Shown: one piece after another, positions 3,728-54,973 of the stretch
How positions within the stretch are numbered: position 1 is the first letter of the stretch
How the letters are laid out: the number at the start of each line of letters is the position of its first letter
Origin: a virus
Taxonomy: Duplodnaviria; Heunggongvirae; Uroviricota; Caudoviricetes
DNA length: 64,000 nt
Reading direction: 5' to 3' (one strand)
Virus record (IMG/VR): IMGVR_UViG_3300037471_001733
Location: 22,201 to 86,200 of that record
Made by a program: the position numbers and the translations under genes
The notes under the pieces: generated by a model
The model's database searches: none
What the model was told of the DNA's origin: nothing
What the model saw: only the letters and a program-made list of their open reading frames with translations

Positions 3728-4455
3728 TGCGCGGACCTCAGTCGGAATTGATGCATGGAACGAGGGGCCTGTGACTGGCTGCTGCCGGAGCCGAGAACTT
3801 CGATGGCGGCCAGCGTCCAGGTCTGTGAAGCGGGGGCCGTCATGCCAATCGCGTAGGTGCCAGTGGCGCCTGAATCGGCGTGGTAGCCGTGGTACACGCA
3901 GTACTCGTTGGCCAGTGTGTCGTTGTTCTGCGCAACGGCAGCAGTGCGCTGCGTGAACGTCCCGGCATTGCTGCGGTATGTCTGCGATGTCAACGCAGTG
4001 GCCGCACGGTCGCCGATGAACATCACCGCCGCCGAGTTGGCCCCGGTGGTCGTCAAGTTGACGGACGGAGCCGTGCCGGTACCGGAGCCAGAGACAACGG
4101 CACCGACGCCGCCAGCACTGCGGAACTGGTACGCCGTCGCGCCGAACACGATGCCATCGTCTCCTTCAGTGCCAGCGCCGCGCGAGACCGAGATCGTCAC
4201 GGACGCTGCCGTGGACGCAGTGGCGGTCCAGATGTAGAGCTCAGCGTGCGACGAGTCGACCGCGACGTCCGCGCGTTGCGTGTACGTGTTCGTCGCGCTG
4301 TCGCTAACGACTAGGCCGTCAATGTGCGATTTCAGGGTGCCAATGACGACGATCAGGTCGCCAACCTGCGTCGTGAGCGACATGGTCAGCGCGCTGCCGA
4401 AGGCCTGGGCCCATGTGCTCGTGTTTACGCTGGTGACAAAGGTTGGTGCTGCCAT
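3724..4455 (-). CDS. hypothetical Thr/Ser/Ala-rich protein
   Basis: 243 aa ORF tightly packed in operon. Confidence 0.45.
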   Translation of the reverse strand: MAAPTFVTSVNTSTWAQAFGSALTMSLTTQVGDLIVVIGTLKSHIDGLVVSDSATNTYTQRADVAVDSSHAELYIWTATASTAASVTISVSRGAGTEGDDGIVFGATAYQFRSAGGVGAVVSGSGTGTAPSVNLTTTGANSAAVMFIGDRAATALTSQTYRSNAGTFTQRTAAVAQNNDTLANEYCVYHGYHADSGATGTYAIGMTAPASQTWTLAAIEVLGSGSSQSQAPRSMHQFRLRSAQ

Positions 4456-13513: not shown

Positions 13514-13955
13514 GAACCTTGGACCTCGCGGCCGGCGTCAGCCCGAACTCGACCAGCCACGCCTTGAAGCGCCGGTCGGCATCGGCCAGCATGGCCACCG
13601 CCGGGTTCGCTTTGATGCTGCGGTCGCCCTGCGTGTTCGTTGTTTCGTAGGTAGGGCCGTCCTGGTTCACCAGTTCCTGATACCGCAGGATCTCGGCGTA
13701 CACGGCGCAGCCTCTCTCAAGGGCGTAGGCATCGGCCTCGGTTAGCACGCCCATCCGATCCAGCAGCACAGACATGCGGCCCCAGGCAACCTTGGCCTCG
13801 TCGGACAAGTGGCTGGGGCAACTAGGTATCTCGCGGCGTGGTTTGGGCTCGCTCTTGTTGAGCGCGCGCCTTCCCGGGTTGCCTGTAACTATTTTTAAGT
13901 GGCTCGGTTTTGGCCTGCGCCCCGCCATATCTCTATTCCTTGACTGGCCAGCCAT
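13455..13955 (-). CDS. terminase small subunit, P27 family
   Basis: 166 aa; 'KPSHLKIVTGNPGRRALN' N-terminus typical of P27-family TerS; precedes TerL. Confidence 0.7.
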   Translation of the reverse strand: MAGQSRNRDMAGRRPKPSHLKIVTGNPGRRALNKSEPKPRREIPSCPSHLSDEAKVAWGRMSVLLDRMGVLTEADAYALERGCAVYAEILRYQELVNQDGPTYETTNTQGDRSIKANPAVAMLADADRRFKAWLVEFGLTPAARSKVHVQNADDDQKEDHLQEFFG

Positions 13956-14214
13956 CCACCCCGATCACCGGCCGAACTCGATGACCTAGATCTCGCGCCG
14001 TTTTGTCACGGTGACAGGGGGTACATAGCCCCTGAGCCTGGCCCGGGTCTTCGTGGAAGTCCTTGCCGCCGTTGACTAGCGCGACTTTGTGGTCCAACTG
14101 AGTTGCGGCAGCAAGTCGGCCATGGCGTGAGCACTCAGCACAAAGCGGGTTCAGCCGCAAGTAGTAGTCGCGGAACCGCTGCAGCGGGCGGCCACGCAAG
14201 CGATCAGTGGCCAT
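13933..14214 (-). CDS. HNH endonuclease (terminase-associated)
   Basis: 93 aa; CxxC ... DHKVAL..GG ... CxxCH HNH motif; directly upstream of TerS. Confidence 0.7.
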   Translation of the reverse strand: MATDRLRGRPLQRFRDYYLRLNPLCAECSRHGRLAAATQLDHKVALVNGGKDFHEDPGQAQGLCTPCHRDKTARDLGHRVRPVIGVDGWPVKE

Positions 14215-14552: not shown

Positions 14553-15449
14553 CTATAACCCCAACTGCAGTTGACCAAGAGACTTGCTTCCCTTGGACCG
14601 GTTGCACCCAAAGCACTCGCACTGCGTGTTGCTATAGCTGTGTGGACCTCCATCGCGCAGGCTGACAACGTGACCAAGCTCCGGTGCGCCCTCAATCCTC
14701 TTGCCCATCTTCGACCTCGGCGTCTTAATGCCGCAAATCTTGCAGCGCCAGCCGTCGCGCTCAAAGACAGACAGCTTGTCCACCTTCTCGTACTCGCAGC
14801 CGAACTTTCTGGCGCGACGCCGATGCGTGGTGCCGCTAGTGGCTCTGTAACGGTAGCTCAGCTGACAGGCTATCGAGCAGTACTTTTGGCGCAGGTCGCC
14901 ATAGTCCGGCGTGAACGCAACTTCGCAGAAGCCGCACTTGCGAGGCGACCGGTCGCGGCTACGCTCTTGCTTCTTCCGATTGTAAACCTTGCTCCTGCAT
15001 TTGCTGCTACAGAAGTTCGCATCCGGCATCTTGGCCATGAAGTCGCGCCCGCAGGACGGGCTGGCGCAGACCCTGGCATAGCGCAGCTTATTCTGGCCGC
15101 GCTCCTTTTTCTCCGGCGCTGGAACGCACTCATAGCAGAACTTGCGCGGCTTGCCGTTCTTAAATAGTGGCTTTGGGTGGCGGCAGCCGTTTTCATTCCG
15201 GGTCCTGCACTCGTCGGAGCAATGACTGCGGCGCAGCTTCGTCGGCTTGAAGGGCATTCCACAGTAGGCGCATAACCGCGGCGGTTTCGGAGGCACGGGC
15301 GGATTCTTCCGTGGTCGTCCAGCGCCAGGACGGCGGCCGCCAGAGTTTGGACGCGGGCCACCGCGCTTTGAACGCGACGCCTCGACCAGTGCGCATAGCG
15401 CGCCTTTGCAGCCGCCAACAGACAGCCGCCTATACTCGCCTTCAACCAT
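14553..15449 (-). CDS. multi-zinc-ribbon protein with C-terminal HNH endonuclease domain
   Basis: 298 aa; at least 6 CxxC pairs, C-terminal 'ELGHVVSLRDGG...CECFGCNRSKGSK' HNH motif; AGGAAG RBS. Confidence 0.65.
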   Translation of the reverse strand: MVEGEYRRLSVGGCKGALCALVEASRSKRGGPRPNSGGRRPGAGRPRKNPPVPPKPPRLCAYCGMPFKPTKLRRSHCSDECRTRNENGCRHPKPLFKNGKPRKFCYECVPAPEKKERGQNKLRYARVCASPSCGRDFMAKMPDANFCSSKCRSKVYNRKKQERSRDRSPRKCGFCEVAFTPDYGDLRQKYCSIACQLSYRYRATSGTTHRRRARKFGCEYEKVDKLSVFERDGWRCKICGIKTPRSKMGKRIEGAPELGHVVSLRDGGPHSYSNTQCECFGCNRSKGSKSLGQLQLGL

Positions 15450-15649
15450 GCTGACTTCCTATACAAGTTGGTATGGCCAGAGACCCGGTCGTGTTGCAAG
15501 CGCGACTGGGTTTCGCCATTTTGGCCTAGAACCAACAAATCTGCTGGACAAAACCACAGTTCCCAGGGCGCCAAGAATTTCCTCTCAAAACGCGCCTCTG
15601 AACAGCAAGGTCAACCGATGGTTTACAAGCCGAGGGCTGGGAAGAACTG

Positions 15650-16190
15650 ATTGGGGTATTGGGGGGTGCGCCTCGACTCTCCCCACGCCCAGCCGCGCCA
15701 GCTGTCAGCGCACGAGCTGCCGCTCAGCACGAGCTGCGCCGCTCGATCCCTGCTGGTGCTGGTGCTGCGCGTTGTCACGAGGGGTGCGGCGCCGCCTGGC
15801 TGTCGAGTGCCTGCGGTTATGTGGCGAGGGTCTGCCGCTGCGCCAGTGCACCCGGGCCGCTGCGCGGCCGTGCTCCTGGTGGTGGCGTGCTGGAGCTCCG
15901 ACCGATCGGCGCAGGCAAGCGCCATGGTGCGAACGGTGCACGAGGGAATGCGGCGCAGTGCTGGTGCCTGCGGCTTAGTGGAGTGCTGCGGCTTTGTGGA
16001 GTGGCGCAACTAGTGGAGTGCGCCGTGCTGCAGGGCATGGCGCCATGGACAGGGGTGCAGCGCTGCTGCGCCGCTGGTGCTGTCTCACCCGTGCCGATCG
16101 GCTTCCGCTGCAGGGGCGCTGGTGCTGGAATGCAGGCACCAAAGCAAAAGGGCCGCACGAGGCGGCCCATGGCGTGGAGTGCTTTGGTCT
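15650..16190. repeat. GC-rich non-coding stretch with short tandem motifs (GCACGAGCTGC x2, GCTGGTGCTG xn, TAGTGGAGTGC/TGTGGAGTGG x3)
   Basis: no convincing ORF/RBS; repeats seen directly in sequence. Confidence 0.3.
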
Positions 16191-16440
16191 AGGTGCTGGC
16201 GGCTTTCCGCTCCCGTCCTATACGGATGGCATGGGCAAGCGCGGCCATCTCCCGACCGTTGTCGTAAGGGCCGCGCGCCACCGGCTTTTTGCTGATGCCT
16301 GCGGCTGGCAGCAGGCCAACGAAGCCGGCTTCGTCCACGAAGTCTAGATATGTCATGGCGCCGATGGTCTTGACTGCGATGACACAAGCAACGCTGCCGC
16401 CGCCGATGGTGGGGCGCATGAAAAGGTCCCCGGCTTGCAT
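16189..16440 (-). CDS. small hypothetical protein (leftward operon, gene 8)
   Basis: 83 aa; start ATG preceded by CTGAGGAGGGGACGCC (stop-in-RBS coupling). Confidence 0.4.
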   Translation of the reverse strand: MQAGDLFMRPTIGGGSVACVIAVKTIGAMTYLDFVDEAGFVGLLPAAGISKKPVARGPYDNGREMAALAHAIRIGRERKAAST

Positions 16441-16452
16441 GGCGTCCCCTCC

Positions 16453-16746
16453 TCAGTGGGCCAGCAGATGCCGCACGCTGGCGCCATCCGGTATCCGCAG
16501 CATTGCCGCCACTGCATCCACGTATTCCGGTGCAGGCCGGCGCAATTTGTACTGCTGGTCTCCATACGAGTTGGGAATGGTGCGCGATTCAATCAAGCCG
16601 CGTTCCCTAAGCGCGCGGAATGCCCGGGTGTCATCTTCTGGCGCCACCTCAGCAGCGGCGGCAATGTCATGCCATGAGGGGAGACGGATAGTCCCGTCTG
16701 CATTGGTACGGGAAGCGAGCAGGGCATACAGACGATTGAGGTTCAT
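16453..16746 (-). CDS. winged-helix/HTH_36-like small DNA-binding protein
   Basis: 97 aa from internal ATG with GAGGGG RBS; 'LYALLASRTNADGTIRLPSWHDIAAAAEV...RALRERGLIE' wHTH pattern. Confidence 0.5.
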   Translation of the reverse strand: MNLNRLYALLASRTNADGTIRLPSWHDIAAAAEVAPEDDTRAFRALRERGLIESRTIPNSYGDQQYKLRRPAPEYVDAVAAMLRIPDGASVRHLLAH

Positions 16747-16757
16747 GGCGCGGCCCC

Positions 16758-17132
16758 TCAGATGTCCCAGACGCCATCCACGGTCGCGCCGTGCGCCGCC
16801 TCGTGGGCGTGCGCCGCGATGGCCGCCACGAGGCGCCCGCCGGGCGTTGCTTCCAACGTATCGCCCTCGCTGCACTGGTACTGCAGGCACCGCGCCAGCG
16901 AATGGAACCATGCGGCGGTCTGATTTGGCATGGGGCGCGCCAGCAGTGCACGCAGGCCCTGCAGCGGCTGCCGATCCTCCGGGTAACGCCCCTCATAGCG
17001 GGTTGCGTGGGCGTAGTTGTTGGCTGCACGCAGCGAGATAGCCGCCTGCGCCGCATCGTCGGCGATGCCCTGGGAAACGGCCCATTGCGCCACGGTGGCC
17101 ACGTGCAGATCAGAGCAGATAAAGCAAGACAT
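16758..17132 (-). CDS. hypothetical protein (leftward operon, gene 6)
   Basis: 124 aa; AGGAG RBS 8 nt upstream. Confidence 0.5.
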   Translation of the reverse strand: MSCFICSDLHVATVAQWAVSQGIADDAAQAAISLRAANNYAHATRYEGRYPEDRQPLQGLRALLARPMPNQTAAWFHSLARCLQYQCSEGDTLEATPGGRLVAAIAAHAHEAAHGATVDGVWDI

Positions 17133-17182
17133 GGTGTGATCTCCTATTGCCGCTCATGCTGGCGGCGCAGCGGGTTGAAGGG

Positions 17183-17452
17183 TTAGTCCTCGCGCGGTGT
17201 CTCAATTTGATGCGGCAGGGGTCGCCCCATGCCGTCGGCGCAGTAAAGGGACGTAGAAGCACCGCACGGCAGGTATGCCGGCGCGTCAATTGGCCCGCCT
17301 GCCGTCACATCCATACATGCCCCGTACCGAAATTGCCGCCGGTCTTGATGCAGATGGATCAATTCGACCGTCTGCCGTTGGACTTGCCCGCCGGTCACAT
17401 TGTGGAAAGCGCCAGCAGCAGCGCGGCGGATGGTTTCTGATTGCATGGACAT
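17183..17452 (-). CDS. hypothetical protein (leftward operon, gene 5)
   Basis: 89 aa from ATG at 17452 preceded by conserved CTGAGGAGCGAACC cassette. Confidence 0.5.
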   Translation of the reverse strand: MSMQSETIRRAAAGAFHNVTGGQVQRQTVELIHLHQDRRQFRYGACMDVTAGGPIDAPAYLPCGASTSLYCADGMGRPLPHQIETPRED

Positions 17453-17466
17453 GGTTCGCTCCTCAG
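17450..17466 (-). promoter_or_regulatory. translational-coupling cassette CTGAGGAGCGAACCATG (copy 3 of 3 identical)
   Basis: identical 17-mer (stop TGA + GGAG RBS + 6 nt + ATG) at 17450-17466, 17679-17695, 18174-18190. Confidence 0.5.
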
Positions 17467-17681
17467 TTGAAGCCCTTGTCCGCCTCGATCTGGCGCAGGA
17501 TCTCGACTGCCTCAGCGATCGGCACGAAGTCAGACAGGGGGTCAACAATCGTTTTCTTGCCCACGGTCACCAGCACGACGCGAAACTTTCCGCGCGCCGC
17601 CTCAGTGCTGATTCCGGGCATGCCGGTGGCGGCGCGCGCGGCAAGGGTGGCGGCTCGCAATTGCTTGAGTTGCTCAAACAT
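17463..17681 (-). CDS. hypothetical protein (leftward operon, gene 4)
   Basis: 72 aa; start inside cassette copy 2. Confidence 0.5.
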   Translation of the reverse strand: MFEQLKQLRAATLAARAATGMPGISTEAARGKFRVVLVTVGKKTIVDPLSDFVPIAEAVEILRQIEADKGFN

Positions 17682-17695
17682 GGTTCGCTCCTCAG
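17679..17695 (-). promoter_or_regulatory. translational-coupling cassette CTGAGGAGCGAACCATG (copy 2)
   Basis: identical 17-mer. Confidence 0.5.
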
Positions 17696-17931
17696 ATACC
17701 GAAAACTTGATTGATCGCAGCGCGGCGCAGTGCCTCGCAGTGCATCTGCGCCACGGGTTGATTGATCTCGTCCACCACGTCAAGTGCATCGTTAACGGCA
17801 TCCATGAGATGCGCCATGGCGATATCTTCCGGGTTTGCTTCTACGTGATTGCGCAACTGCAGGCGGGCGCTCAGCAGGTTTTCGACGATCACGTCGAATT
17901 GCTTGACATGCATGGTCACAGGGGTGGGCAT
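17692..17931 (-). CDS. hypothetical protein (leftward operon, gene 3)
   Basis: 79 aa from ATG 17931 (TGA-AAGGTCGAGCC-ATG junction). Confidence 0.5.
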   Translation of the reverse strand: MPTPVTMHVKQFDVIVENLLSARLQLRNHVEANPEDIAMAHLMDAVNDALDVVDEINQPVAQMHCEALRRAAINQVFGI

Positions 17932-17942
17932 GGCTCGACCTT

Positions 17943-18176
17943 TCAGCGCATGTTGATGTAACCCGGCATGCCGAGTGCGCGCGCCAGCACGTTTGCCGCG
18001 TGGCGGTCTGCAAGGTTGCATATCAGGTACTTGGCCTGCGCGACCGCTTCGAAGTGCGCGCTCTGCGCCTCTTCGTATTCCTGATGGGTTCGATTGCTGT
18101 CGCCGATCATGTGCACGTGGCCACCGATGGCGGGCCGCAATTCCTTGGCGATGCTGATGGCAGTTCGGATATTCAT
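17943..18176 (-). CDS. hypothetical protein (leftward operon, gene 2)
   Basis: 77 aa from ATG 18176 inside cassette copy 1. Confidence 0.5.
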   Translation of the reverse strand: MNIRTAISIAKELRPAIGGHVHMIGDSNRTHQEYEEAQSAHFEAVAQAKYLICNLADRHAANVLARALGMPGYINMR

Positions 18177-18190
18177 GGTTCGCTCCTCAG
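18174..18190 (-). promoter_or_regulatory. translational-coupling cassette CTGAGGAGCGAACCATG (copy 1)
   Basis: identical 17-mer. Confidence 0.5.
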
Positions 18191-18318
18191 TGCGCCGCAC
18201 GAATGGCGGCAATGTCTGCATGGATCAGCGCGCGGACTTGCAGGCGGCGCACGAGGGATTGATCGTTGCGCATGGGTAGCAGAACCCGCAGCGCATACAT
18301 AAGAGAGAAACGAGACAT
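18187..18318 (-). CDS. 43-aa leader ORF (first gene of leftward operon)
   Basis: MSRFSLMYALRVLLPMRNDQSLVRRLQVRALIHADIAAIRAAH; GGGGTTGAG RBS; its TGA sits in cassette copy 1; just downstream of leftward promoter. Confidence 0.3.
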   Translation of the reverse strand: MSRFSLMYALRVLLPMRNDQSLVRRLQVRALIHADIAAIRAAH

Positions 18319-18366
18319 CTCAACCCCTTGCCACTGATTACGCGCGGCGCCGTTTGGTATGTCTCT

Positions 18367-18395
18367 AATGTAGGCGATACGACTACATGATGCAA
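18367..18395 (-). promoter_or_regulatory. leftward promoter (-35 TTGCAT, 17-nt spacer, -10 TACATT) with embedded palindromic operator O1 ATGTAGGCGATACGACTACAT (TGTAG-N9-CTACA)
   Basis: seen in sequence; operator occupies the spacer. Confidence 0.55.
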
Positions 18396-18667
18396 GCCCT
18401 TGCGCAAACTTTTTTCATGCGCCATGGCGGCGCGGCTGCACGTATATTGATAGTGCTGCGCCGCATAGGTGCGGCTTTGCTTTGCCTGCTCGCTTTTGCC
18501 TGCTGGTGCTGCAGCATGGGCACGAGTGCCTGCGCCATGGATGCGCCGCACTGGTCTGCGCGCCGTGCGCCGCCTCGTGCTGATCAGCTGCGCCGCCGGT
18601 CGAGCTGGTGCGCGACGTTGAGCGGCTGCCTCGTGCTGGCAATCGAGCGAGTGCGCGACCTGGCGCA

Positions 18668-18766
18668 CCCCCTCTGATGGAAACACAGGCAACCCCCTGG
18701 AGTGGAAACACAGGCCAGGCGCACCCTCTCCACGGGAATTACGGAACCCCCTGAGATGGAAACAGG
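18668..18766. repeat. iteron cluster A: 3 direct repeats plus 1 degenerate copy of CCCCCT-N4-GTGGAAACA(CA)GG
   Basis: 18668-18689, 18693-18714, 18747-18766; degenerate 18724-18744. Confidence 0.6.
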
Positions 18767-18784
18767 AATTCACAAATAAACTAC

Positions 18785-18813
18785 TTGCGTTCTGTAGTCG
18801 TTGCGCCTACATT
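18785..18813 (+). promoter_or_regulatory. rightward promoter (-35 TTGCGT, 17-nt spacer, -10 TACATT) with operator O2 TGTAGTCGTTGCGCCTACA
   Basis: mirror-image twin of the leftward promoter/O1, about 430 bp away; GGAG RBS and ATG 18873 downstream. Confidence 0.55.
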
Positions 18814-18872
18814 GGACACATCGCAGCACTGCTGCAGCGGCGCCACCCGCGACGAGTGGCACTGGAGTTGAT

Positions 18873-19547
18873 ATGTTTGGAAAATACGGCAAGCGGATTA
18901 CCGATCCTGCGGAACTGCGCGAGTATCGTTTGAGCTATGTCCCGGCCGCGCTGCGCGACCAGTGCCAGCACGTGAAGTGCAAAACCGGCGATGCTGAGGC
19001 GTGGATCTGGAGCGACAAGGGCCGCGCCTACGCGGTGGGTTTCTCCGGTCGCGGCAAACACCCGTGGTCGCGCAATGGTGGCCAGGGAGCGGCCTACTAC
19101 TTCAAAACCCCGGAAGCGCGCCGCTCCTGGGTTGCGGAACTGTTTGCAGACGCCATGGCCGACGCAAAGCGCGCCGAGGAGCGCAAGGCGCAAAAGGCCG
19201 CAGCGCGTGCAAAGCCGCACGCCTTGCAGGTGGGAGATGTGTTGCGCTCCTCCTGGGGGTACGACCAAACCAATATCGACTATTACGAGGTCACGAAGCT
19301 TGTCGGCTCACAGATGGTCGAGGTTCGGCGCATTGCCTGCCAGTCTGAGGAAACCGCGCACATGCAAGGCGTGAGCGTTCCCGCCCCTGGCCACTACATC
19401 GGCGAGCCGAAGCGTTGCAAGGTCTCCGACTACGGCAACCGCGACTCGGTCAAGGTGTCCGAGGTGGCGCACGCCTACAAGATGACCCCGCGCATCGTCG
19501 GCGGCGTCAAGGTTTTCAACTCGTCTAGCTGGACGGCCTACGCCTGA
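18873..19547 (+). CDS. hypothetical protein (first rightward gene of module)
   Basis: 224 aa from ATG with GGAG RBS at -8. Confidence 0.5.
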   Translation: MFGKYGKRITDPAELREYRLSYVPAALRDQCQHVKCKTGDAEAWIWSDKGRAYAVGFSGRGKHPWSRNGGQGAAYYFKTPEARRSWVAELFADAMADAKRAEERKAQKAAARAKPHALQVGDVLRSSWGYDQTNIDYYEVTKLVGSQMVEVRRIACQSEETAHMQGVSVPAPGHYIGEPKRCKVSDYGNRDSVKVSEVAHAYKMTPRIVGGVKVFNSSSWTAYA

Positions 19548-19605
19548 TCAACCAGGGCCGCTCATGCGGCGGCCCCCTTACGTGAATTTCACAGGAGCAC
19601 CGACC

Positions 19606-19908
19606 ATGGGCACCACGACCGGCCGACTCTTCCGCACGATCCGCAGCACGGGACGTGGAAGCGACTACTTCGGCACCTGCGACCAGTGCGGCAAGCACAT
19701 GAGCGAATGCCACGTGAGCCAAGTTCAGCGCGAATATCGGCGCGACGATGGCACCACGTACACCGGGCCCGTGACCGGCGGCGCCTATGGGCATCGTGAG
19801 TGCTTGGTCAAGCACTTCGGCGAACCCGTCCCAGCGGTGACGCGCGAATCCGTGCGAGTTTCGCCCTTTACTGATCCGGCGCGCTTCCCCAAAACGCTGC
19901 GCGCCTGA
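19606..19908 (+). CDS. small zinc-binding protein (CDQC...H...C)
   Basis: 100 aa from ATG with AGGAG RBS; stop lies in TGACCCCTTCC motif. Confidence 0.5.
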   Translation: MGTTTGRLFRTIRSTGRGSDYFGTCDQCGKHMSECHVSQVQREYRRDDGTTYTGPVTGGAYGHRECLVKHFGEPVPAVTRESVRVSPFTDPARFPKTLRA

Positions 19909-19916
19909 CCCCTTCC
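19906..19916 (+). promoter_or_regulatory. conserved post-gene motif TGACCCCTTCC (copy 1 of 3; stop codon is first triplet)
   Basis: identical 11-mer at 19906, 20338, 21883, each time ending a gene. Confidence 0.4.
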
Positions 19917-19944
19917 GTAGATTGCACAGCAGGAGCACCACACC

Positions 19945-20340
19945 ATGGGAGCAGCAGCAGAACACCGGGGCAATGCCCTGATCCGCAGGCAGGCCGGCGC
20001 AGCGCATGCCGCGCGCCAAGCCATCGAGGACGCAGCGCGCGCCGCGCAGGTGGCCGAGGACTGCAACGAGTTTGCCCGCCAAGCGTGGGCGTATCTGCTC
20101 GACCCTTCCGGCCTGCGGCAACCCGCAGTGGAGCGCGCAAAGACTCGGCGCGGCTGGGCTAAGCGCCATGCGGAACTCAGTGCCGCGCATTGCGCATGGG
20201 TTGATGCGGACCATCGCAACGCCATGGCCTACCTTAGCGCCTGCATCCGCCGCGCGAAAGCCGCGCATGCGCTACTCACATTTGCGCTGGGCGGCTGGAC
20301 GATCCCGGATCACATTGAAGTGCCGCGCGCTGCGGCTTGA
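19945..20340 (+). CDS. hypothetical protein
   Basis: 131 aa, AGGAG RBS; ends in TGACCCCTTCC copy 2 (20338-20348). Confidence 0.5.
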   Translation: MGAAAEHRGNALIRRQAGAAHAARQAIEDAARAAQVAEDCNEFARQAWAYLLDPSGLRQPAVERAKTRRGWAKRHAELSAAHCAWVDADHRNAMAYLSACIRRAKAAHALLTFALGGWTIPDHIEVPRAAA

Positions 20341-20453
20341 CCCCTTCCGGCGCACTCGCAAGGGTGCGCATTGCGATGCAGCCACGCGGAAGCATCGCAA
20401 TGCGCCAGCGCGCATAACGGCGCCGTCCCGGCTTGAGGCGGCAGGAGATTCAG

Positions 20454-22262
20454 ATGTCAGCACAAGACTTGATTGTTAGGATCAACGCAGCCGCCCAGGT
20501 GGCCCCGGAGCAACTGCCCAAAGGGGCGCAGCCGCGCGACCACATGATTGCCTTTGAGTACACCGACGCCCACGGCACGCGCGGCTGCATGCGCATCCTG
20601 AACACCCGGGCGCGGCTGCTGGCCTTCGCTGAGCAGGTGCGGAAGAACGCGGCAGCATTCGACGGCAAGCCGCGCAGCAAGCCCGCCGGGCCGCGCAAGA
20701 TTGCCGGCGCATCCCCGCTTTCCACGGCGCGCGCACTGCTCAAGGATGGCGCGCGGGTTGAAGCCCTCGCAGCGCTTGAGGCGCGCGGCGGGGAGGTGTT
20801 TTTCGGCGCCGCTGGCGTGCCTGTGCTGCATCAGGTTGCACAGCGCGTGGAGCACGAGGGCCGCCGCTGGGTTGTCACGCGCTGCGCCGTTGATGGTCTC
20901 ATCTACCTCATTCACGAGGCGTCCGGGCTGTCAGCAGGCGGCAAGGGCTTGCCTGAGATGCGCAGCATTGCGGATGCCCTGGCGCGGCTTGAGCTCGTGC
21001 ACCGGGACGAGGCGGAAAACGGCTACCGGCAGCGAATGATTGCTGCGATCGAGCAAGCGGCGGATTACGACCAGCAGGCGGCGCGCGCGGCTTTCGAGGC
21101 GTGCGATGGTCTCAAGAGCAAGGATGCCGCGCCGGTGGCTCAGGAAGCGTACCAGCAGGCGCGCGCGCTGTCGGCGGCGCAGGTGGCGCCCGATGTCGAG
21201 CCGGCAGTAGATGCAGACCCCTCCCCGGTGGAAAGCGAAGCCGAGGCGGCACCCCCTGTAGCGGAAACGCCTGCGGCAGCTGACACCCCTGCAGCGGAAA
21301 TCGAGTCCAGCGCGCCGGCGGTTGCGCCAGCATCCCCTCCGGCGGATTCACAGGCAGGCGCTGCACCCCCTGCGATGGAAAGCGCGCAGCCTGCGCCGCT
21401 TGCCACCGCGCCAGGCCGATCGGATGCGCTCATCGCGCGGGCCATCGCTTGGGTTGCCGTAGTCTGGGGAACCGCCAGCGTGCCGAGCGTTGCGGACTAC
21501 CGCGCCGGCCGGTGCGATGACACATTCCCGTGGGCGGGCGGCAGCCGCGCCGCCGGCTATCTGACATGGGCCGACCTCATTGGCGAGTGCATGGCCGCGC
21601 TGGAGCGCGACGACAGCGCCGACCAGGCGGCACGAGACGCCGCACTGCAACCACCGACCCCCATCCGTAGGAAAGGCCCGCGACAACATGAGCAGCACAC
21701 CCCATCCCGTGCAACCCGCAGTGCCAACCGGCCGCGAGTGGTGGACCCGCGGGCTGCTCGACTGGCACGCCGAGGCGCTGCACGCCGCCCAGGAGATCGC
21801 CGCGCTGCGCGAATCACTGGCTGCGGAGCGCGCAATGGTCCGCGAGCTGCAGGAGGCGCTCGCTGCCCGCCGGCAGGCCGCTTGACCCCTTCCCGGGGAA
21901 TCACGGCGCCACAAGCTTGCCGCCCCTGGCGCGACGCCAGCGAAACCCGAGACTGCACCCATAAAAACCTGGAGCACAGCATGACCTACACCGAAGCCAT
22001 CCAAGCCCTGCGCGACGCTATTGCGCAGGCCCCGAAGGGTGAAAAGCTGCAAGCCTTCCAAGCCAAGCGGGAGAAGATAATAGGGGCAATGCCCAAGGTG
22101 GAAATCTGTGGCGGCGAGCAGTGCATCCGCTATCCCAAGGGCTACCGCTTTGACTGCGGTCGCGAGGTCCACACGGACTGGATGTGGCAACCGTTTGCCA
22201 GCGAGGAAATCGCCATGCGGCCTGGCAACCTGCCGTACATCCTGCGCATGCCGGCTGCCTGA
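20454..22262 (+). CDS. iteron-containing ORF (candidate replication-initiator-like protein); 3' third is probably read-through overlapping two separately translated small genes
   Basis: ATG 20454 with AGGAG RBS; no in-frame stop until 22262; central P/A/E-rich linker encoded by iterons; Arg-rich junk-like translation 21650-21980. Confidence 0.4.
   Translation: MSAQDLIVRINAAAQVAPEQLPKGAQPRDHMIAFEYTDAHGTRGCMRILNTRARLLAFAEQVRKNAAAFDGKPRSKPAGPRKIAGASPLSTARALLKDGARVEALAALEARGGEVFFGAAGVPVLHQVAQRVEHEGRRWVVTRCAVDGLIYLIHEASGLSAGGKGLPEMRSIADALARLELVHRDEAENGYRQRMIAAIEQAADYDQQAARAAFEACDGLKSKDAAPVAQEAYQQARALSAAQVAPDVEPAVDADPSPVESEAEAAPPVAETPAAADTPAAEIESSAPAVAPASPPADSQAGAAPPAMESAQPAPLATAPGRSDALIARAIAWVAVVWGTASVPSVADYRAGRCDDTFPWAGGSRAAGYLTWADLIGECMAALERDDSADQAARDAALQPPTPIRRKGPRQHEQHTPSRATRSANRPRVVDPRAARLARRGAARRPGDRRAARITGCGARNGPRAAGGARCPPAGRLTPSRGITAPQACRPWRDASETRDCTHKNLEHSMTYTEAIQALRDAIAQAPKGEKLQAFQAKREKIIGAMPKVEICGGEQCIRYPKGYRFDCGREVHTDWMWQPFASEEIAMRPGNLPYILRMPAA
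21218..21385. repeat. iteron cluster B inside coding sequence: 4 repeats plus 1 degenerate copy (CCCCTCCCCGGTGGAAAGCG, CCCCCTGTAGCGGAAACGCC, CCCCTGCAGCGGAAATCG, CCCCCTGCGATGGAAAGCGC)
   Basis: 21218-21237, 21252-21270, 21286-21303, 21366-21385; degenerate 21334-21354; each encodes P-P/A-V/A-E-S/T. Confidence 0.6.
21688..21885 (+). CDS. small coiled-coil protein (65 aa), overlaps the long ORF in another frame
   Basis: AGGAAAGG RBS; ends in TGACCCCTTCC copy 3 (21883-21893). Confidence 0.45.
   Translation: MSSTPHPVQPAVPTGREWWTRGLLDWHAEALHAAQEIAALRESLAAERAMVRELQEALAARRQAA
21980..22262 (+). CDS. small Cys-containing protein (94 aa)
   Basis: internal ATG with GGAG RBS, same frame as long ORF, clean stop. 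Confidence 0.45.
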
Positions 22263-22345
22263 CGCATTGTCCGGTGGCGCAGCCTTTGGCGTTCAGCGCT
22301 ATTTGAACAAGGTGCGCGGTTTAGTTCAGGCGTACTTGAATAGCG

Positions 22346-22395
22346 CCCCCCCATGTAGTGAAAACAGGGCATCAACCCCATCCAGCGGATACAGG
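22346..22395. repeat. iteron cluster C (2 copies: CCCCCCCATGTAGTGAAAACAGGG, CCCCATCCAGCGGATACAGG)
   Basis: second copy overlaps RBS of next gene. Confidence 0.5.
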
Positions 22396-22404
22396 AGTCA
22401 AACC

Positions 22405-22695
22405 ATGGGAAGTATCAACCTCGGCCGCCACCACGTCGCCATCAGCGATCAATGGACGATCTACACCCCTGGCCTACCTGGCTGGCAGATGCTGGGCGTG
22501 ATCACCCGCAGCAAGGGTGGCGAGCAGATCACGAAGGCGCTGGCCCGCAGCCCGAAGGGCGAGCTCTGCGCGGTGCGTGGGCTGTCAGCCGAGCCGCTTG
22601 TCCAGCGAAAGGCTGAAGCGGCGCTGGCGGCTGCGATGCGCGAGGCCCATCCGGTGGAAACAGATGGCACCCATTCCGAGGGAAACAGGGCTTGA
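22405..22695 (+). CDS. hypothetical protein (96 aa) with C-terminal iteron-encoded tail
   Basis: AGGAG RBS; last 15 codons are iteron cluster D. Confidence 0.5.
   Translation: MGSINLGRHHVAISDQWTIYTPGLPGWQMLGVITRSKGGEQITKALARSPKGELCAVRGLSAEPLVQRKAEAALAAAMREAHPVETDGTHSEGNRA
22646..22690. repeat. iteron cluster D (2 copies: CCCATCCGGTGGAAACAG, CCCATTCCGAGGGAAACAGGG)
   Basis: seen in sequence. Confidence 0.5.
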
Positions 22696-22719
22696 ATATG
22701 TAGGTTAAGCGCCTACACT
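22692..22719 (+). promoter_or_regulatory. promoter/operator O3 (-35 TTGAAT, 16-nt spacer containing TGTAGGTTAAGCGCCTACA, -10 TACACT); predicted leaderless start at ATG 22726
   Basis: third TGTAG-N9-CTACA palindrome with same architecture as O1/O2; -10 ends 6 nt before ATG, no RBS. Confidence 0.5.
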
Positions 22720-22725
22720 GGCATC

Positions 22726-22956
22726 ATGAGCACCTTACCGCCGCGCACGCCAGAGAACATCAAAGCCTTCCGCCAGCGTGCCGGCTGGACGCAGGAGAAG
22801 GCATGCGAGATGGCGTGCATCCACGACCGCCAAACCTGGCGTAAGTACGAAAACGGCACGCTCAAGATGAGCGAAGAGCGCTGGCGGCTGGCGCACTTTA
22901 TGGCCAACCTGCACCCCGACTTCGACGTTCGGCCGCGTACCAAGGCTGCGGCCTAG
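22726..22956 (+). CDS. XRE-family helix-turn-helix regulator (candidate repressor of the TGTAG-N9-CTACA operators)
   Basis: 76 aa; 'IKAFRQRAGWTQEKACEMACIHDRQTWRKYENG' HTH_XRE signature. Confidence 0.7.
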   Translation: MSTLPPRTPENIKAFRQRAGWTQEKACEMACIHDRQTWRKYENGTLKMSEERWRLAHFMANLHPDFDVRPRTKAAA

Positions 22957-22989
22957 CCTTCGCCCTCTGAGTACCGCCGGGAGGCGGCG

Positions 22990-23334
22990 TCAACCGTTTG
23001 GGTTCTGTGCCAGCCAAGCCCGGATCATCGCCTTGACCGCGGCGTGCAGGCCGTGTGGCGCGTAGACGCCACGCACTTCCTCGATACCTCTTTCCTTGAG
23101 CAGGGCCCTTCTTGCTCGATTCCTCTCTGTCGAGCTCTTCCCCGAAGGGGCTTTCGCGGTGGCGTTCATGAGCAGTTCCGTGCCATCGATTTTCTTCTCA
23201 GGCAAGGAGCAGGGGGCCAGTTCGCACTCTGCGGGAGCATTTGAGGGGGGCGGTTTGTTCTCGACCATTTGGCATTGACCCGTCGCGCGCGACGGTCCAT
23301 CATTCTTCGCTTTTCGACGATCAGAAGCCGCCAT
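22990..23334 (-). CDS. ribbon-helix-helix-like small DNA-binding protein (start possibly internal at ~23166)
   Basis: 'KSSTERNRARRALLKERGIEEVRGVYAP' resembles RHH/antitoxin-like S.AER.R.YR.R....G...V.VW.P motif. Confidence 0.45.
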   Translation of the reverse strand: MAASDRRKAKNDGPSRATGQCQMVENKPPPSNAPAECELAPCSLPEKKIDGTELLMNATAKAPSGKSSTERNRARRALLKERGIEEVRGVYAPHGLHAAVKAMIRAWLAQNPNG

Positions 23335-23568: not shown

Positions 23569-24279
23569 ATGGACTGCGGCAAGAGAAGAACATGGGAGTG
23601 TGGCGTGACAACGAACTCTAAGAGGCTTTCTGGTAGACCATCTTTTAATTGGTCTATACCTGAGCCAGAAGAAGTTAAAGAAGTTAGATTGAAAGCCAAT
23701 TTGTCTCAGAGAGAAGCTTGTAATCTTTCTGGGATTAAAGAAGTAATGACTTGGAGTAATTGCGAAACTAGGAGAGCCGATGGCACTCCTAAGGCCCGCA
23801 TGGACCCAATTAGATGGGAATATTTCCTTCTAATAGTTGGACAACATTCCAAATTCGTTATTCTTCCGAGACTCGGGGTTGAACAGCCAAGAGAGGCGGC
23901 AGCTTTAACTAGGAAAGGTCCGTCTCTGCCTGGGGAGAACATTACTTTCGCAGTCGAGAGCCGAACTAGTGAAGACGAGTGGCGCTTGGTAGAAGGCGGA
24001 CAGTTCACAGCTCTGACTGCGGCATGTGTGGCCATAGACACGATGGTTGCCTGCAGGAACCTAAATGAACTAAGGGTGTCGCGTTACTCAGGTGGCGACT
24101 TCGTGATGGCAGTGCATGGGCCTGGTGTCTCTATGGACGAAGGCCCGAAGCGTTTTACCCATGCAAAGGCTGCGCCATCTCGAAGGACTGGGACTGACAG
24201 GAACGGAGCAGACCCAGGAGACCCAGATAATGATGGAAATGGAAGCAGAAATTCCAATGGTTTCGACCCTCAGGATTGA
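23569..24279 (+). CDS. HTH_XRE-domain protein with uncharacterised approx. 150-aa C-terminal domain, encoded in a low-GC island
   Basis: GGAG RBS; 'VKEVRLKANLSQREACNLSGIKEVMTWSNCE' HTH; AGA/AGG/TCT/AAT-rich codon usage unlike the rest of the window. Confidence 0.6.
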   Translation: MDCGKRRTWECGVTTNSKRLSGRPSFNWSIPEPEEVKEVRLKANLSQREACNLSGIKEVMTWSNCETRRADGTPKARMDPIRWEYFLLIVGQHSKFVILPRLGVEQPREAAALTRKGPSLPGENITFAVESRTSEDEWRLVEGGQFTALTAACVAIDTMVACRNLNELRVSRYSGGDFVMAVHGPGVSMDEGPKRFTHAKAAPSRRTGTDRNGADPGDPDNDGNGSRNSNGFDPQD

Positions 24280-24306
24280 CATTCCCCGAAATAGGGAAGC
24301 CCAGGA

Positions 24307-43970: not shown

Positions 43971-44287
43971 GACTGCCCCCTTTTGGTGGTGTTACCGCAG
44001 TGTTCAAAGACCTGAACGCGGCCTTCTACGGGGTGTGCTTTGCAAGAAACTGTTGCGGTGCAGCACGGTGCTGCTGGAGCGAAATGCTCCGTGCTTCGGT
44101 TGGTGCGGTGCGAGGGGAAATGCGCCCTCTGGATGACAGGCCCGGCGATCTTCGACCATTCGGTCGAGTCGTTGCAGATTTGTACACTTAATGGTTTAAG
44201 GACATTGGCCCATGTACATGACGCGGTGTACCTTTGCCCCATGGAAACGCAGCAATTCGTGACGCGCATCACAGGGAGCGGGTTCAT
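43967..44287 (-). CDS. hypothetical protein (weak)
   Basis: 106 aa ORF overlapping antisense ORF. Confidence 0.25.
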   Translation of the reverse strand: MNPLPVMRVTNCCVSMGQRYTASCTWANVLKPLSVQICNDSTEWSKIAGPVIQRAHFPSHRTNRSTEHFAPAAPCCTATVSCKAHPVEGRVQVFEHCGNTTKRGQS

Positions 44288-44652
44288 TACACCGGCTCCG
44301 TTGCATCTGCGGGCACAGCAGATGCGCCTTGGCCATCAGTCCAAATCTCTTTCCCGTCGTCAGGATGCAAATGGAATCGCGTGACCTTGCCGCCGGTATT
44401 CCGCTCAATCAGTACAGACAATTTCGGGTTGCTGGGACTCAGCCCGTACATGACGTTGCGGAGGCGACCGAGGGAGACACCACAGCTGGCAGCGAACTCT
44501 TTCCTAGCTTTCGCGTTGGGCAAAGCTTTGACGAAGTCGTACAGCGGGGTGATGTACAGACTGCGGTCGCGTCCATTGACCTTCGTAGCGGTGTAGGTTC
44601 CGGTGCACATAACACCGAATCCTACACTGATGAATGCATACCTAGCAAACAC
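44287..44652 (-). CDS. Cro/YdaS-like HTH regulator (first gene of early-right operon; start may be internal)
   Basis: 'LYDFVKALPNAKARKEFAASCGVSLGRLRNVMYG...LIERNTGGKVTRFHLHPDD' matches Cro/YdaS-type pattern. Confidence 0.55.
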   Translation of the reverse strand: MFARYAFISVGFGVMCTGTYTATKVNGRDRSLYITPLYDFVKALPNAKARKEFAASCGVSLGRLRNVMYGLSPSNPKLSVLIERNTGGKVTRFHLHPDDGKEIWTDGQGASAVPADATEPV

Positions 44653-44685
44653 CGTTCGTGGCCTGCCGCGCAGTCCACTACTGGT

Positions 44686-45180
44686 GTGAGTGACGACCGC
44701 TTAATCCGTATCAGCAATCTGCGCAGGGTGTGCGCCGAGCGCAGGCTCAAGACCGCCGATCTACACCGGCTCCTGCCCTATGCCCGCTACACCTACTGGC
44801 GTGACGTACTGGAGGGCGACAAGCCCTTTGGAGAGAAGGCAGCGCGCAAGGTAGAAGCCAAGCTCGGCCTGCCCGACCGGTGGCTGGACACGCCGCGGGA
44901 CCCTGTTGAGTTCCGCGAGGTGTTACCCAGCGTGCCCGACGACGACGAAGACGAGCACCCAGATGAAGGGGGCCATGAATCGCACTGGCGCCACATCGCG
45001 GAGCTGTTTGCCGATATCTGCACGGAGCAGGACATCAAGATGCTGCCGTCCACCTTCTTGCTGATCGTTGATGCCGGCGTCCAGCGCGTGAATGAAGCGG
45101 CCGACAAGCGCAAGGCTTCCGAGGTTTTCAGCAAGCTTCTTCGCGTACTACAGCACGGCAAAGACCAAAATAGGGGCTAA
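44686..45180 (+). CDS. HTH DNA-binding regulator (candidate CI-like repressor, no peptidase S24 domain); start uncertain (GTG 44686 or 44728)
   Basis: divergent from Cro-like gene; 'RRLKTADLHRLLPYARYTYWRDVLEGDKPFGEKAARKVEAKLGLPDRWLD'. Confidence 0.45.
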   Translation: MSDDRLIRISNLRRVCAERRLKTADLHRLLPYARYTYWRDVLEGDKPFGEKAARKVEAKLGLPDRWLDTPRDPVEFREVLPSVPDDDEDEHPDEGGHESHWRHIAELFADICTEQDIKMLPSTFLLIVDAGVQRVNEAADKRKASEVFSKLLRVLQHGKDQNRG

Positions 45181-52484: not shown

Positions 52485-53357
52485 GTGCGGCGGCGTGTGC
52501 TGCCAGCCGCTCTTTCTTTTGATGGCAACTGCGAAAACCCCGGGGCTACGAGCGCGGCCAGCAGAGCCGCGCCGCCAGCCCCACCAACCAACTACAGCGA
52601 GATTCACGTGATCCACTACCACGGACTGCCGATTACGCCGGACACGGCAGCAGAGCGTGCTATTGCTGGCGGCCATGCGTTTGTGTCATTCGCGCACCCT
52701 GAGCAATTGGGTCTCGCTGCGGCTGTGGCGCAATCATTCGCCATTGATAACGGCGCGTTCTCGGCTTGGCGGGCCGGCCGTCCGGTAACGGACTGGACGC
52801 CTTTCTACGAATGGGCTGCCGCAGCCAAGCGCATCCCTGGCTGCGACTTCGCCGTCATACCTGATGTCATTGACGGCACTGAGGCTGACAACGATGCGTT
52901 GCTTGCCGAGTGGCCGCTGCCCAACTGGTTCGGGGCGCCCGTGTGGCACATGAACGAGGGCCTGGATCGCCTGGAGCGCTTGGCCACCGTCTTCCCTCGC
53001 GTGTGCATCGGCAGTTCTGGCGAGTTCGCAATGGTGGGAACGCCGACGTGGTGGGGCCAGATCGCCCGCGCCATGCGTGTTGTGTGCGACGACGATGGGC
53101 GCCCGATGTGCAGGCTCCATGGCCTGCGCATGCTGGACCCGGAAGTGTTCAAGCATCTCCCGTTTTCCAGCGCAGACAGCACGAATATCGGCCGCAACAT
53201 TGGCATCGATCAAGCTTGGCGCGGCACCTATACGCCGCCGACGAAAGAGGCGCGGGCAGCTGTCATGCGCTCGCGCATTGAGGCTGAGAACGCGCCAGCA
53301 CGCTGGGCGTTTCGCATCCCCGAGTTCCATCCTGAAGACCAAGGGAGCCTGCTGTGA
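52485..53357 (+). CDS. candidate DpdA-like DNA (7-deazaguanine) transglycosylase (TGT-like); start uncertain
   Basis: directly upstream of queC-queE-queD with 4-nt overlap; 'IDNGAFS' resembles TGT catalytic 'DSGGFQ' motif. Confidence 0.45.
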   Translation: MRRRVLPAALSFDGNCENPGATSAASRAAPPAPPTNYSEIHVIHYHGLPITPDTAAERAIAGGHAFVSFAHPEQLGLAAAVAQSFAIDNGAFSAWRAGRPVTDWTPFYEWAAAAKRIPGCDFAVIPDVIDGTEADNDALLAEWPLPNWFGAPVWHMNEGLDRLERLATVFPRVCIGSSGEFAMVGTPTWWGQIARAMRVVCDDDGRPMCRLHGLRMLDPEVFKHLPFSSADSTNIGRNIGIDQAWRGTYTPPTKEARAAVMRSRIEAENAPARWAFRIPEFHPEDQGSLL

Positions 53358-53890
53358 GCAAAGTTATCCTGTTGTCCGGCGGCCTGGATTCCGCCCTGTG
53401 CTTGGCTCGCTACGGCGCCGACTTGGCCATTGGCTTCAATTACGGACAGCCGCATGCGATTGAGTTGGCCCATGCCGAGCGCATTGCAAGGCAGCACGGC
53501 GTGCCTTTCGAGATCCATGCGCTGCCGACCATGCCGCGCGTCAACGACGTCGTCTTCGCCGGCCGCAATGCGGTGATGCTGACGGCAGCCGCAGCCATTG
53601 CTCAGGCGCGCGGCCACGACGCGGTGTTGATCGGCTGCAACTTCTCGGATGCCACCCGGTTTCCTGACTGCCGGCCGGAATTCATTCGCAACATCAGCAA
53701 GGCGCTTGAGTCGGCATATGGCGTAAGCGTCTGCGCGCCGCTGCTGTTGTCCACCAAGACGCAGATAGTGGCAGAGGCCAAGCAACGCGGCATCACGGAC
53801 ACCTGGACCTGTTACGCGCCCACAACTGATGGTCAGCAGTGCGGCCAGTGCTACTCCTGCCAGGGCATCGCCTCAGCGAGCGCGTCATGA
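53354..53890 (+). CDS. queC: 7-cyano-7-deazaguanine synthase QueC (short form)
   Basis: PP-loop 'LLSGGLDS', C-terminal Cys cluster CGQCYSCQ. Confidence 0.75.
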   Translation: MSKVILLSGGLDSALCLARYGADLAIGFNYGQPHAIELAHAERIARQHGVPFEIHALPTMPRVNDVVFAGRNAVMLTAAAAIAQARGHDAVLIGCNFSDATRFPDCRPEFIRNISKALESAYGVSVCAPLLLSTKTQIVAEAKQRGITDTWTCYAPTTDGQQCGQCYSCQGIASASAS

Positions 53891-54507: not shown

Positions 54508-54509
54508 CC

Positions 54510-54965: not shown

Positions 54966-54973
54966 CGAGCACC

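Follow-up and report, generated by a model that had tools for sequence, protein, structure and literature searches.

A distant Aca10-family regulator that probably represses its own leaderless promoter and two divergent phage operons through a shared palindrome

Background

Aca10 of Pseudomonas citronellolis (entry 7XI5), encoded in the operon acrIC7-acrIC6-aca10, is a dimeric repressor whose minimal 19-bp palindrome, ATACGCTCATTGAGCGTAT (ATACG-N9-CGTAT), lies inside the promoter TTGCAA-N16-TATTCT. Its binding to DNA requires the residues Q22, Q37 and R44 and its dimerisation requires G49 (PMC9410881). Regulons of Aca proteins that span several operons are also known, as in the Aca1/Aca2 loci with up to three motifs, in the bidirectional arrangement of Aca11/Aca13 and in Aca14 (PMC13551039, PMC12282945). 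The present analysis deals with a 64,000-nucleotide stretch of phage DNA (Caudoviricetes; positions 22,201 to 86,200 of the IMG/VR record IMGVR_UViG_3300037471_001733), referred to throughout as the window, in which three copies of the palindrome TGTAG-N9-CTACA, named O1, O2 and O3, accompany a gene for a 76-residue helix-turn-helix (HTH) protein, XRE76. From the sequence comparisons described below we consider it likely that XRE76 is a distant autorepressor of the Aca10 family, acting on a leaderless promoter of its own as well as on two divergent operons with probable anti-defence cargo.

Aca repressors and their operators have been the most productive bait for new anti-CRISPR (Acr) and other anti-defence genes, through guilt by association.

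Operator sites and promoter architecture

The first-pass annotation of this DNA had described three copies of TGTAG-N9-CTACA seated in the spacers between -35 and -10 hexamers. Both our reading of the sequence and a scan of the window agree with that description: exactly three exact matches are present, there is no fourth, and none of 100 dinucleotide-preserving shuffles contains any match. A search that allowed one mismatch has added a single site, at 62949, which lies across a start codon, lacks promoter hexamers and is regarded as a chance occurrence. When all palindromes with arms of 5+5 nt and spacers of 2-14 nt were counted in the window, TGTAG/CTACA was the sole family of at least three copies with AT-rich arms; the other recurrent palindromes all have GC-rich arms, as expected at 64% GC. 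The three promoters and the leaders of two of them are arranged as follows.

18367..18395, minus strand: O1 promoter/operator; -35 TTGCAT (18395-18390), 17-nt spacer, -10 TACATT (18372-18367); operator at 18369-18387; predicted start at A 18360 of a conserved CAT.
18785..18813, plus strand: O2 promoter/operator; -35 TTGCGT (18785-18790), 17-nt spacer, -10 TACATT (18808-18813); operator at 18793-18811; predicted start at A 18820.
22692..22719, plus strand: O3 promoter/operator; -35 TTGAAT (22692-22697), 16-nt spacer, -10 TACACT (22714-22719); operator at 22699-22717; predicted start at the A of the ATG at 22726 (leaderless).
18316..18360, minus strand: O1 leader; Shine-Dalgarno sequence AAGGGG, ATG at 18318; homologous to the leaders of O2 and of contig L225.
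18820..18875, plus strand: O2 leader; Shine-Dalgarno sequence GGAG, ATG at 18873; 5' hairpin GCAGC-ACU-GCUGC.

Each of the three promoters conforms to TTGnnn-16/17-TACAyT; the operator copy occupies its spacer and reaches with the right arm into the -10 hexamer. The left arm, TGTAG, lies outside both hexamers and yet is invariant between O2 and O3 while every adjoining base differs. O1 and O2, which had been described as near-perfect inverted copies about 430 bp apart, are indeed mirror images, 424 bp apart from operator start to operator start. They form an inverted repeat of 38 nt with 82% complementarity, and the similarity runs on through the leader, the Shine-Dalgarno sequence and the ATG, over about 100 nt from the -35. 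The same three sites are present in an independent assembly, Logan SRR35147325 (L081), which excludes an artefact of assembly. In 11/11 aligned promoters, including those of the related contigs considered below, a CAT is found 8-10 nt past CTACA, where the transcription start is expected.

The hairpin of the O2 leader has no significance over shuffled sequences. A conserved hairpin in the 5' untranslated region, as proposed for aca10 operons, is seen in the leaders of contigs of the L163 type and weakly in that of O2, is absent from those of O1 and L152, and is in no case significant. An RNA or a small gene in the 387-bp spacer between O1 and O2 was also considered and rejected, with no Rfam match, a folding z-score of -0.96 against shuffles and no independent gene call.

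The 76-residue regulator

The gene that follows O3 encodes the proposed repressor.

22726..22956, plus strand: XRE76, 76-aa HTH_31 protein; distant Aca10-family regulator, proposed dimeric repressor of O1, O2 and O3.

This open reading frame scores over the Pfam cut-off for HTH_31. A profile of XRE76 and 20 family members matches Aca10 (7XI5, chain 7xi5_A) with an E-value of 2.6e-15 and Aca3 with an E-value of 1.6e-6, and its matches to the controller (C) proteins of restriction-modification systems (about 4e-5) and to MqsA are weaker than these. The AlphaFold model of XRE76 has five helices (pLDDT, predicted local distance difference test, 83) and aligns with 7xi5_A over 58 columns at a target-normalised template modelling score of 0.87, a similarity that extends to other XRE folds also. 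The regulators associated with TGTAG share W21, D34 and R/K35 (by eye), positions at which Aca10 and the regulators of the contigs L221 and L223 differ. On these comparisons XRE76 is assigned to a distant subgroup of the Aca10 family with a predicted DNA specificity of its own. The family is rare, comprising 80 representative clusters (E <=1e-3) among 1.84 billion. A word-indexed protein search has returned only XRE76 itself, no relatives were found in viral contigs by peptide patterns or in cultured phages, and the DNA of the window has no match in annotated phage or plasmid collections.

The -10 hexamer of O3 ends 6 nt ahead of the XRE76 ATG (22726), and the open reading frame has no in-frame upstream start and no Shine-Dalgarno sequence. 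The A of the conserved CAT of O3 is the A of this ATG. The stop codon (TGA) of the preceding 96-aa gene is inside the -35 of O3, 30 nt upstream of the ATG; the regulator genes of the relatives are translationally coupled to the preceding gene by TGATG or ATGA overlaps, unlike XRE76. That the XRE76 mRNA made from O3 would be leaderless is supported by the coincidence of CAT and ATG, the lack of a Shine-Dalgarno sequence and the lack of translational coupling. The first-pass annotation had arrived at the same reading from the position of O3 just upstream of the gene and the missing ribosome-binding site, and the distance of the upstream stop codon and the position of CAT over the 11 promoters now stand beside it.

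A second protein encoded in the window, of 236 aa (23569-24279, plus strand), has an HTH region paralogous to that of XRE76 (32% identity, E-value 8e-9), with a different recognition helix. It is encoded in a low-GC insert at about 23590-24290 (40-50% GC) with foreign codon usage. Its C-terminal domain is without assigned function. The protein as a whole recalls fusions of HTH and Acr domains such as the HTH-AcrF31 protein of contig L219, to which no homology was found.

Co-occurrence of regulator and operator in other contigs

As close relatives are lacking in annotated collections, viral contigs were scanned with the DNA design itself. A scan with the twin pattern has identified L152 (60% GC), which has three such promoters, one of them driving a 35%-identical homologue of the 224-aa gene that follows O2. 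Alignment of the promoters of the window and L152 has revealed a longer common design, TTGnnn-N2-TGTAG-N9-CTACA-nT-N5-CAT, and a scan with this design has led to L163 (66% GC), in which TTGCAT-17-TACATT carries the operator in the same position. The promoter of L163 drives an 80-aa gene and a translationally coupled gene for a 68-aa homologue of XRE76. L163 was thus retrieved by the DNA pattern alone, without a protein query, and the co-occurrence of site and regulator is not due to chance since the XRE76 family is so rare.

Seven proteins are 74-92% identical to the L163 regulator, and the contigs of six of them were analysed. Five of these six have one perfect site each, at the same promoter position and directly upstream of an operon of 2-3 genes that ends in the regulator; about 0.006 sites are expected over all seven contigs (L163 and the six). 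Across the contigs of the L163 type the cargo genes vary, and the promoter and the regulator are retained. XRE76 matches their regulators with E-values of 1e-12 to 5e-7. The cargo is AcrIE3-like in L218, by precomputed annotation only, and an HTH-AcrF31 fusion in L219 (E-value 4.7e-12), and is unannotated in the remaining relatives. L216 resembles a recombinant, with the upstream region of L163 and the leader of L215. XRE76 had earlier been proposed as the repressor of both operons of the window; the suggested link between the regulator and the sites gains support from its recurrence in independent sequences, while the protein itself appears to be a distant member of the Aca10 family and not a generic or immunity repressor.

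The 96-aa gene upstream of O3 has a homologue in L215 (E-value 4e-8), where it immediately precedes the regulator gene. Cargo and regulator thus form a syntenic pair, between which O3 has been inserted as an additional copy of the promoter. In L221 and L223 regulators of the family are accompanied by different palindromes in equivalent promoters, and specificity accordingly changes from one regulator to another. In L219, the one contig of the six with no exact site, another perfect palindrome (TATCACGA/TCGTGATA) is found ahead of the HTH-AcrF31 fusion gene.

Some further features of these contigs were noted. In the interval that separates a YdaS-like gene from the HTH-AcrF31 fusion gene of L219 (575-625) there is a perfect palindrome of 16 bp, TATCACGATCGTGATA, which is probably the operator of a self-regulating Acr. 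A degenerate site, TGTAAC-N7-GCTACT, occurs 35-36 bp upstream of the primary operator in L152 (1784-1802 and 2216-2234) and L163 (about 3783-3801), and recalls the second inverted repeat known from a number of Aca promoters; a distal site of this kind is missing from the promoters of the window. Tandem TTGACA-N2-TGTAG-N9-C-TACACT promoters have been identified in two unrelated viral contigs, L153 (9330-9800, 37% GC) and L141 (2950-3420, 56% GC), and the promoter design may extend beyond the regulator subgroup, or be convergent. A scan of metagenomes with an alignment of the 'AGWTQ' subgroup was uninformative, returning mainly generic XRE proteins without the motif. None of 129 loci with distant homologues of the 224-aa gene has TGTAG-N9-CTACA, and these loci, which were also examined for locus-specific recurrent palindromes, have no shared architecture.

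The two operons and their cargo

The units that start at O1 and O2 were delimited by independent gene calls and by analysis of the GC content at third codon positions (GC3).

16189..18318, minus strand: O1 operon; eight small genes encoding 43, 77, 79, 72, 89, 124, 97 and 83 aa.
16150..16168, minus strand: terminator-like hairpin and T-run, directly after the last O1-operon gene and before the HNH/terminase late genes.
18873..22695, plus strand: O2 operon cargo; genes of 224, 100, 131, 602 and 96 aa, then the 76-aa gene.

XRE76 is the last gene of the O2 unit. In the O1 operon the 97-aa protein has a sub-threshold winged-helix match (weak HTH_Crp_2). The 224-aa protein (18873-19547, phrog_37844) has a confident model (pLDDT 92), comprising two SH3/Tudor-like beta domains and a long helix that links them. 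This family, with over 260 clusters, is found repeatedly in other phages (for example in L222, L223 and L224), both at positions just ahead of HNH-terminase genes and next to genes for RadC and DUF4942. In Thiobacillus a domain of the same type is found within a 592-aa protein.

The closest homologue of the 224-aa protein, with 70% identity, is encoded in L225. A single promoter of this contig leads into a gene homologous to the 43-aa gene with which the O1 operon begins and then directly into the 224-aa homologue; the leader of the promoter matches that of O1 (…GAGACAT…CAAACGGCGCCGC…), and the homologue of the 602-aa gene is in divergent orientation. The simplest reading of the sequences is that the mirror twins O1 and O2 would have arisen by inverted duplication of one promoter-leader unit, splitting an ancestral operon. 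The genes of the two operons are probably anti-defence cargo.

Phage context and alternative explanations

The window belongs to a prophage or phage. The genes for terS, terL, portal, ClpP-type protease and capsid are encoded leftward at 7.8-14 kb. A leftward early arm has an HTH_36 initiator, a DnaC-like loader and Lar at 40.8-42.9 kb, and a rightward early arm has RecT, YqaJ, QueC, radical-SAM, RdgC and Mom-like genes. The region of O1-O3 is flanked on one side by the late genes and on the other by the end of the leftward early arm. A CI-like/Cro-like pair has been identified by eye, with no Pfam hits, at about 44.3-45.2 kb, where the two early arms meet. It consists, at 44287-45180, of a Cro/YdaS-like open reading frame on the minus strand and of a CI-like HTH (…FGEKAARKVEAKLGLPDRWLD…) in the C-terminal part of a plus-strand open reading frame, and this is the probable true immunity region.

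The position of this pair bears on the explanation in which XRE76 would be the main lysogeny (immunity) repressor, O1 and O2 being lytic promoters controlled as PL and PR are by lambda CI, with a leaderless transcript in the manner of PRM. Such a role would suit a small phage HTH protein that matches phrog_3 ('transcriptional repressor') and has a leaderless, autoregulated design with operators overlapping divergent promoters. The CI-like/Cro-like pair is, however, separate from XRE76 and lies at the meeting point of the early arms, in which the genes for replication and recombination are located, and the O1 operon terminates before the terminase and head genes. The genes controlled encode small unknown proteins and not replication, lysis or structural functions; XRE76 consists of the HTH only, without an oligomerisation or S24 domain, and its relatives end cassettes of 2-3 genes at the 3' end, two of them with cargo annotated as Acr. 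We regard this explanation as unlikely.

It could also be argued that the XRE76 gene merely adjoins one copy of the palindrome and that the sites are the target of some other factor, for instance a regulator of the host, the 236-aa HTH paralogue or the 97-aa winged-helix protein of the O1 operon. L152, L153 and L141 have the promoter design and no gene of the XRE76 family in the sequence examined, and the weak HTH_Crp_2 match of the 97-aa protein and the paralogue at 23569-24279 (E-value 8e-9) offer candidates within the window. Against this, six independent contigs pair the regulator family with the exact site upstream of its own operon, compared with the 0.006 sites expected, and regulator and site stay paired when the cargo changes between contigs. 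L152 is cut at the contig end, the paralogue comes from the low-GC insert and differs in its recognition helix, and the L163-type contigs have no homologues of the 97-aa or 236-aa proteins. A different binding factor is accordingly a rather improbable explanation.

The segment between O1 and O2 also contains direct repeats, which had been described as an iteron cluster.

18664..18769, plus strand: direct repeat of about 25 nt, ACCCCC-N6-GGAAACA(C)AGG; three clear copies and one degenerate copy upstream of the O2 -35.
22641..22692, plus strand: the same repeat; two copies, 25 bp apart, ending at the O3 -35, in the 3' end of the 96-aa gene.
22345..22398, plus strand: two degenerate copies upstream of the 96-aa gene, the second overlapping its Shine-Dalgarno sequence.

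No copy is found at O1. With three or four repeats beside an AT-rich stretch between divergent promoters, the O1-O2 intergenic region might be taken for an origin of replication, with iterons that an adjacent initiator (for example the 224-aa protein) would bind and with palindromes serving as autoregulatory sites of that initiator. An array of the replication type is not borne out, as two copies of the repeat stand immediately ahead of O3, within coding sequence, and two more, in degenerate form, upstream of the 96-aa gene; this distribution argues against an origin and for a cis element tied to the promoters. The repeats upstream of O2 are spaced by 25, 27 and 27 bp and are not in helical phase, and the related phages L221 (1267-1285) and L222 (6463-6480) have the GGAAACA-type core only once in the equivalent intergenic region. 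A separate HTH_36 initiator with a DnaC-like loader is encoded at 40.8-42.7 kb, and the SH3/Tudor-like barrels of the 224-aa model have no resemblance to Rep. An origin at this place is very improbable. The repeats may be the site for a second regulator. Their interpretation as hairpins with covarying stems was rejected: under the same rules, inverted arms of 4 bp flank about 36% of all GGAAAC cores of the window, and the arms in L221 and L222 are homologous and not covarying, which leaves the hairpin model unsupported.

That XRE76 is a C protein or a type II antitoxin autoregulating its own module, as might be thought from best fold matches that include C.Kpn2I, C.Esp1396I, C.BclI, MqsA and HipB and from the classically small, autoregulated and often leaderless C genes, is highly doubtful in view of the absence of any detected endonuclease, methyltransferase or toxin family among the neighbours and of a C-box (GACT-N3-AGTC type), the three dispersed operators with 13 unrelated small genes, and a profile similarity far stronger to Aca10 than to C proteins.

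Other features of the phage were noted outside the O1-O3 region. Two HNH endonuclease genes are encoded upstream of terS (13933-14214 and 14553-15449), with a terminator-like hairpin (14394-14372) between them, and the 740-bp stretch 15450-16188 has no convincing gene. The QueC-like, radical-SAM, RdgC and Mom-like genes at 53354-56616 suggest that the phage modifies its own DNA (7-deazaguanine type), which would be a second anti-restriction strategy in the genome.

Proposed circuit and its significance

The circuit with XRE76 as a distant Aca10-family autorepressor is built on the three sites, their geometry, the homology with Aca10 and the co-occurrence of regulator and operator, all of which are observed. 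We infer that a dimer of XRE76 would bind the 19-bp palindrome TGTAG-N9-CTACA, which fills the spacer and overlaps the -10 of three homologous promoters of the sigma-70 type, and that the bound dimer would exclude RNA polymerase, by analogy with Aca10, Aca1 and Aca2. O3 would yield a leaderless mRNA for the repressor, amounting to negative autoregulation, and O1 and O2 would drive the divergent operons of eight and five unannotated genes. On infection, when repressor is absent, all the three promoters would be expected to fire, and the repressor would build up and then shut them off; in a lysogen the autoregulated O3 would hold both operons low.

Several observations weigh against this interpretation. 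The hexamers of O1, O2 and O3 match the Escherichia coli consensus at 7-8/12 positions only and were missed by a generic promoter scan; they are assigned as promoters because position, spacing and orientation of the downstream gene are conserved over the 11 homologous promoters. The direct comparison of XRE76 alone with Aca10 is weak (E-value 0.19, about 24-30% identity). By alignment, Q22 of Aca10 is conserved as Q23 of XRE76, Q37 is replaced by R39, and neither R44 nor G49 is conserved, the corresponding residues being L46 (with K47 adjacent) and E51, so that the set of DNA-binding and dimerisation residues of Aca10 is not reproduced. These changes are consistent with a different DNA specificity and mean that XRE76 is not a close orthologue of Aca10. 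Among the contigs, L219 has the regulator and no TGTAG-N9-CTACA site. L152, with its three promoters, has no regulator homologue in the 6.4 kb examined of the 37.8-kb contig, which begins there, and L153 and L141 share the promoter design with no family member detected in the sequence examined. All 13 cargo proteins of the window (13/13) are without a Pfam, Acr-family or informative PHROG match, and the fold of the 224-aa protein has given no functional clue. The GGAAACA repeats might reflect a second input.

The logic of the circuit and Aca regulons of several operons are already known, and the value of this locus is practical, not conceptual. It defines a previously undescribed Aca10-like subgroup, known from metagenomes only, with the operator TGTAG-N9-CTACA within cTTGCnn-N2-…-C-TACAyT-N5-CAT, a motif that is specific enough for scanning sequence collections. 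With this motif some 13 genes of the prophage already become candidate cargo, as do further genes in L152, L163, L215-L218 and L220. The locus would also serve as a natural example of the growth of a regulon, in which a promoter-leader unit has been duplicated in inverted orientation and a third copy has been inserted before the regulator as a leaderless promoter.

More tentatively, the block 16150-22990 (6.8 kb) could be an Aca-controlled anti-defence island, with new inhibitors of CRISPR-Cas or of other defences among its 13 genes, the 224-aa family being one of these. In such an island the GGAAACA repeats would be the sites of a second regulator, making a two-input switch, and the leaderless promoter would uncouple the supply of repressor from the expression of the cargo, an arrangement undescribed for Aca systems. 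We hold this extended proposal to be possible but on the whole doubtful.

Comparison with known systems

The leaderless and autoregulated design has counterparts outside the Aca proteins. The cI gene of lambda is transcribed from PRM as a leaderless repressor mRNA that starts at the AUG, from a promoter under the control of the repressor itself. In comparison with lambda cI, the present locus gives no evidence for positive autoregulation or cooperative tetramers and is not the immunity region of this phage. C proteins, which are small XRE dimers, regulate their own promoters by binding to palindromes there, and their mRNAs are often leaderless; C.PvuII, C.Esp1396I and C.Kpn2I have the same fold as XRE76. 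The locus differs from theirs in having no restriction-modification genes and no C-box, and the location of the site in the promoter spacer suggests pure repression, in place of the activation followed by repression at tandem C-boxes. Among the papers searched, none links the term 'leaderless' to Aca proteins.

The Aca regulons of several operons (PMC13551039, PMC12282945) resemble this locus in that a motif is found upstream of the regulator's own operon and of neighbouring operons, the genes of which are mostly unannotated and presumed to be anti-defence genes, and in the conservation of the 5' untranslated region and of the position at which the cargo starts. The locus differs from them in the Aca subgroup and in the motif, in that the two extra promoters are mirror-image duplicates which include the leader, and in that a conserved RNA hairpin is not established.

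The closest described system is that of Aca10 (PMC9410881). The half-site is TGTAG for XRE76 and ATACG for Aca10; XRE76 has a leaderless promoter of its own, whereas aca10 is expressed only from the acr promoter; three promoters are proposed to be controlled here, compared with one; and the cargo of the window is not recognisable as Acr, unlike that of the Aca10 operon. Both regulators are small HTH_31 proteins, and both are associated with a 19-bp palindrome of the form 5+9+5 in the spacer of a TTGCnn-16/17 promoter, with its right arm over the -10. A palindrome in the regulator's own promoter over the core elements, which is a trait of Aca systems, is found at O3 and also in six relatives, in the geometry of IR2 of Aca10. 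By analogy XRE76 would be, as Aca10 is, an autorepressor encoded by the last gene of a cargo operon.

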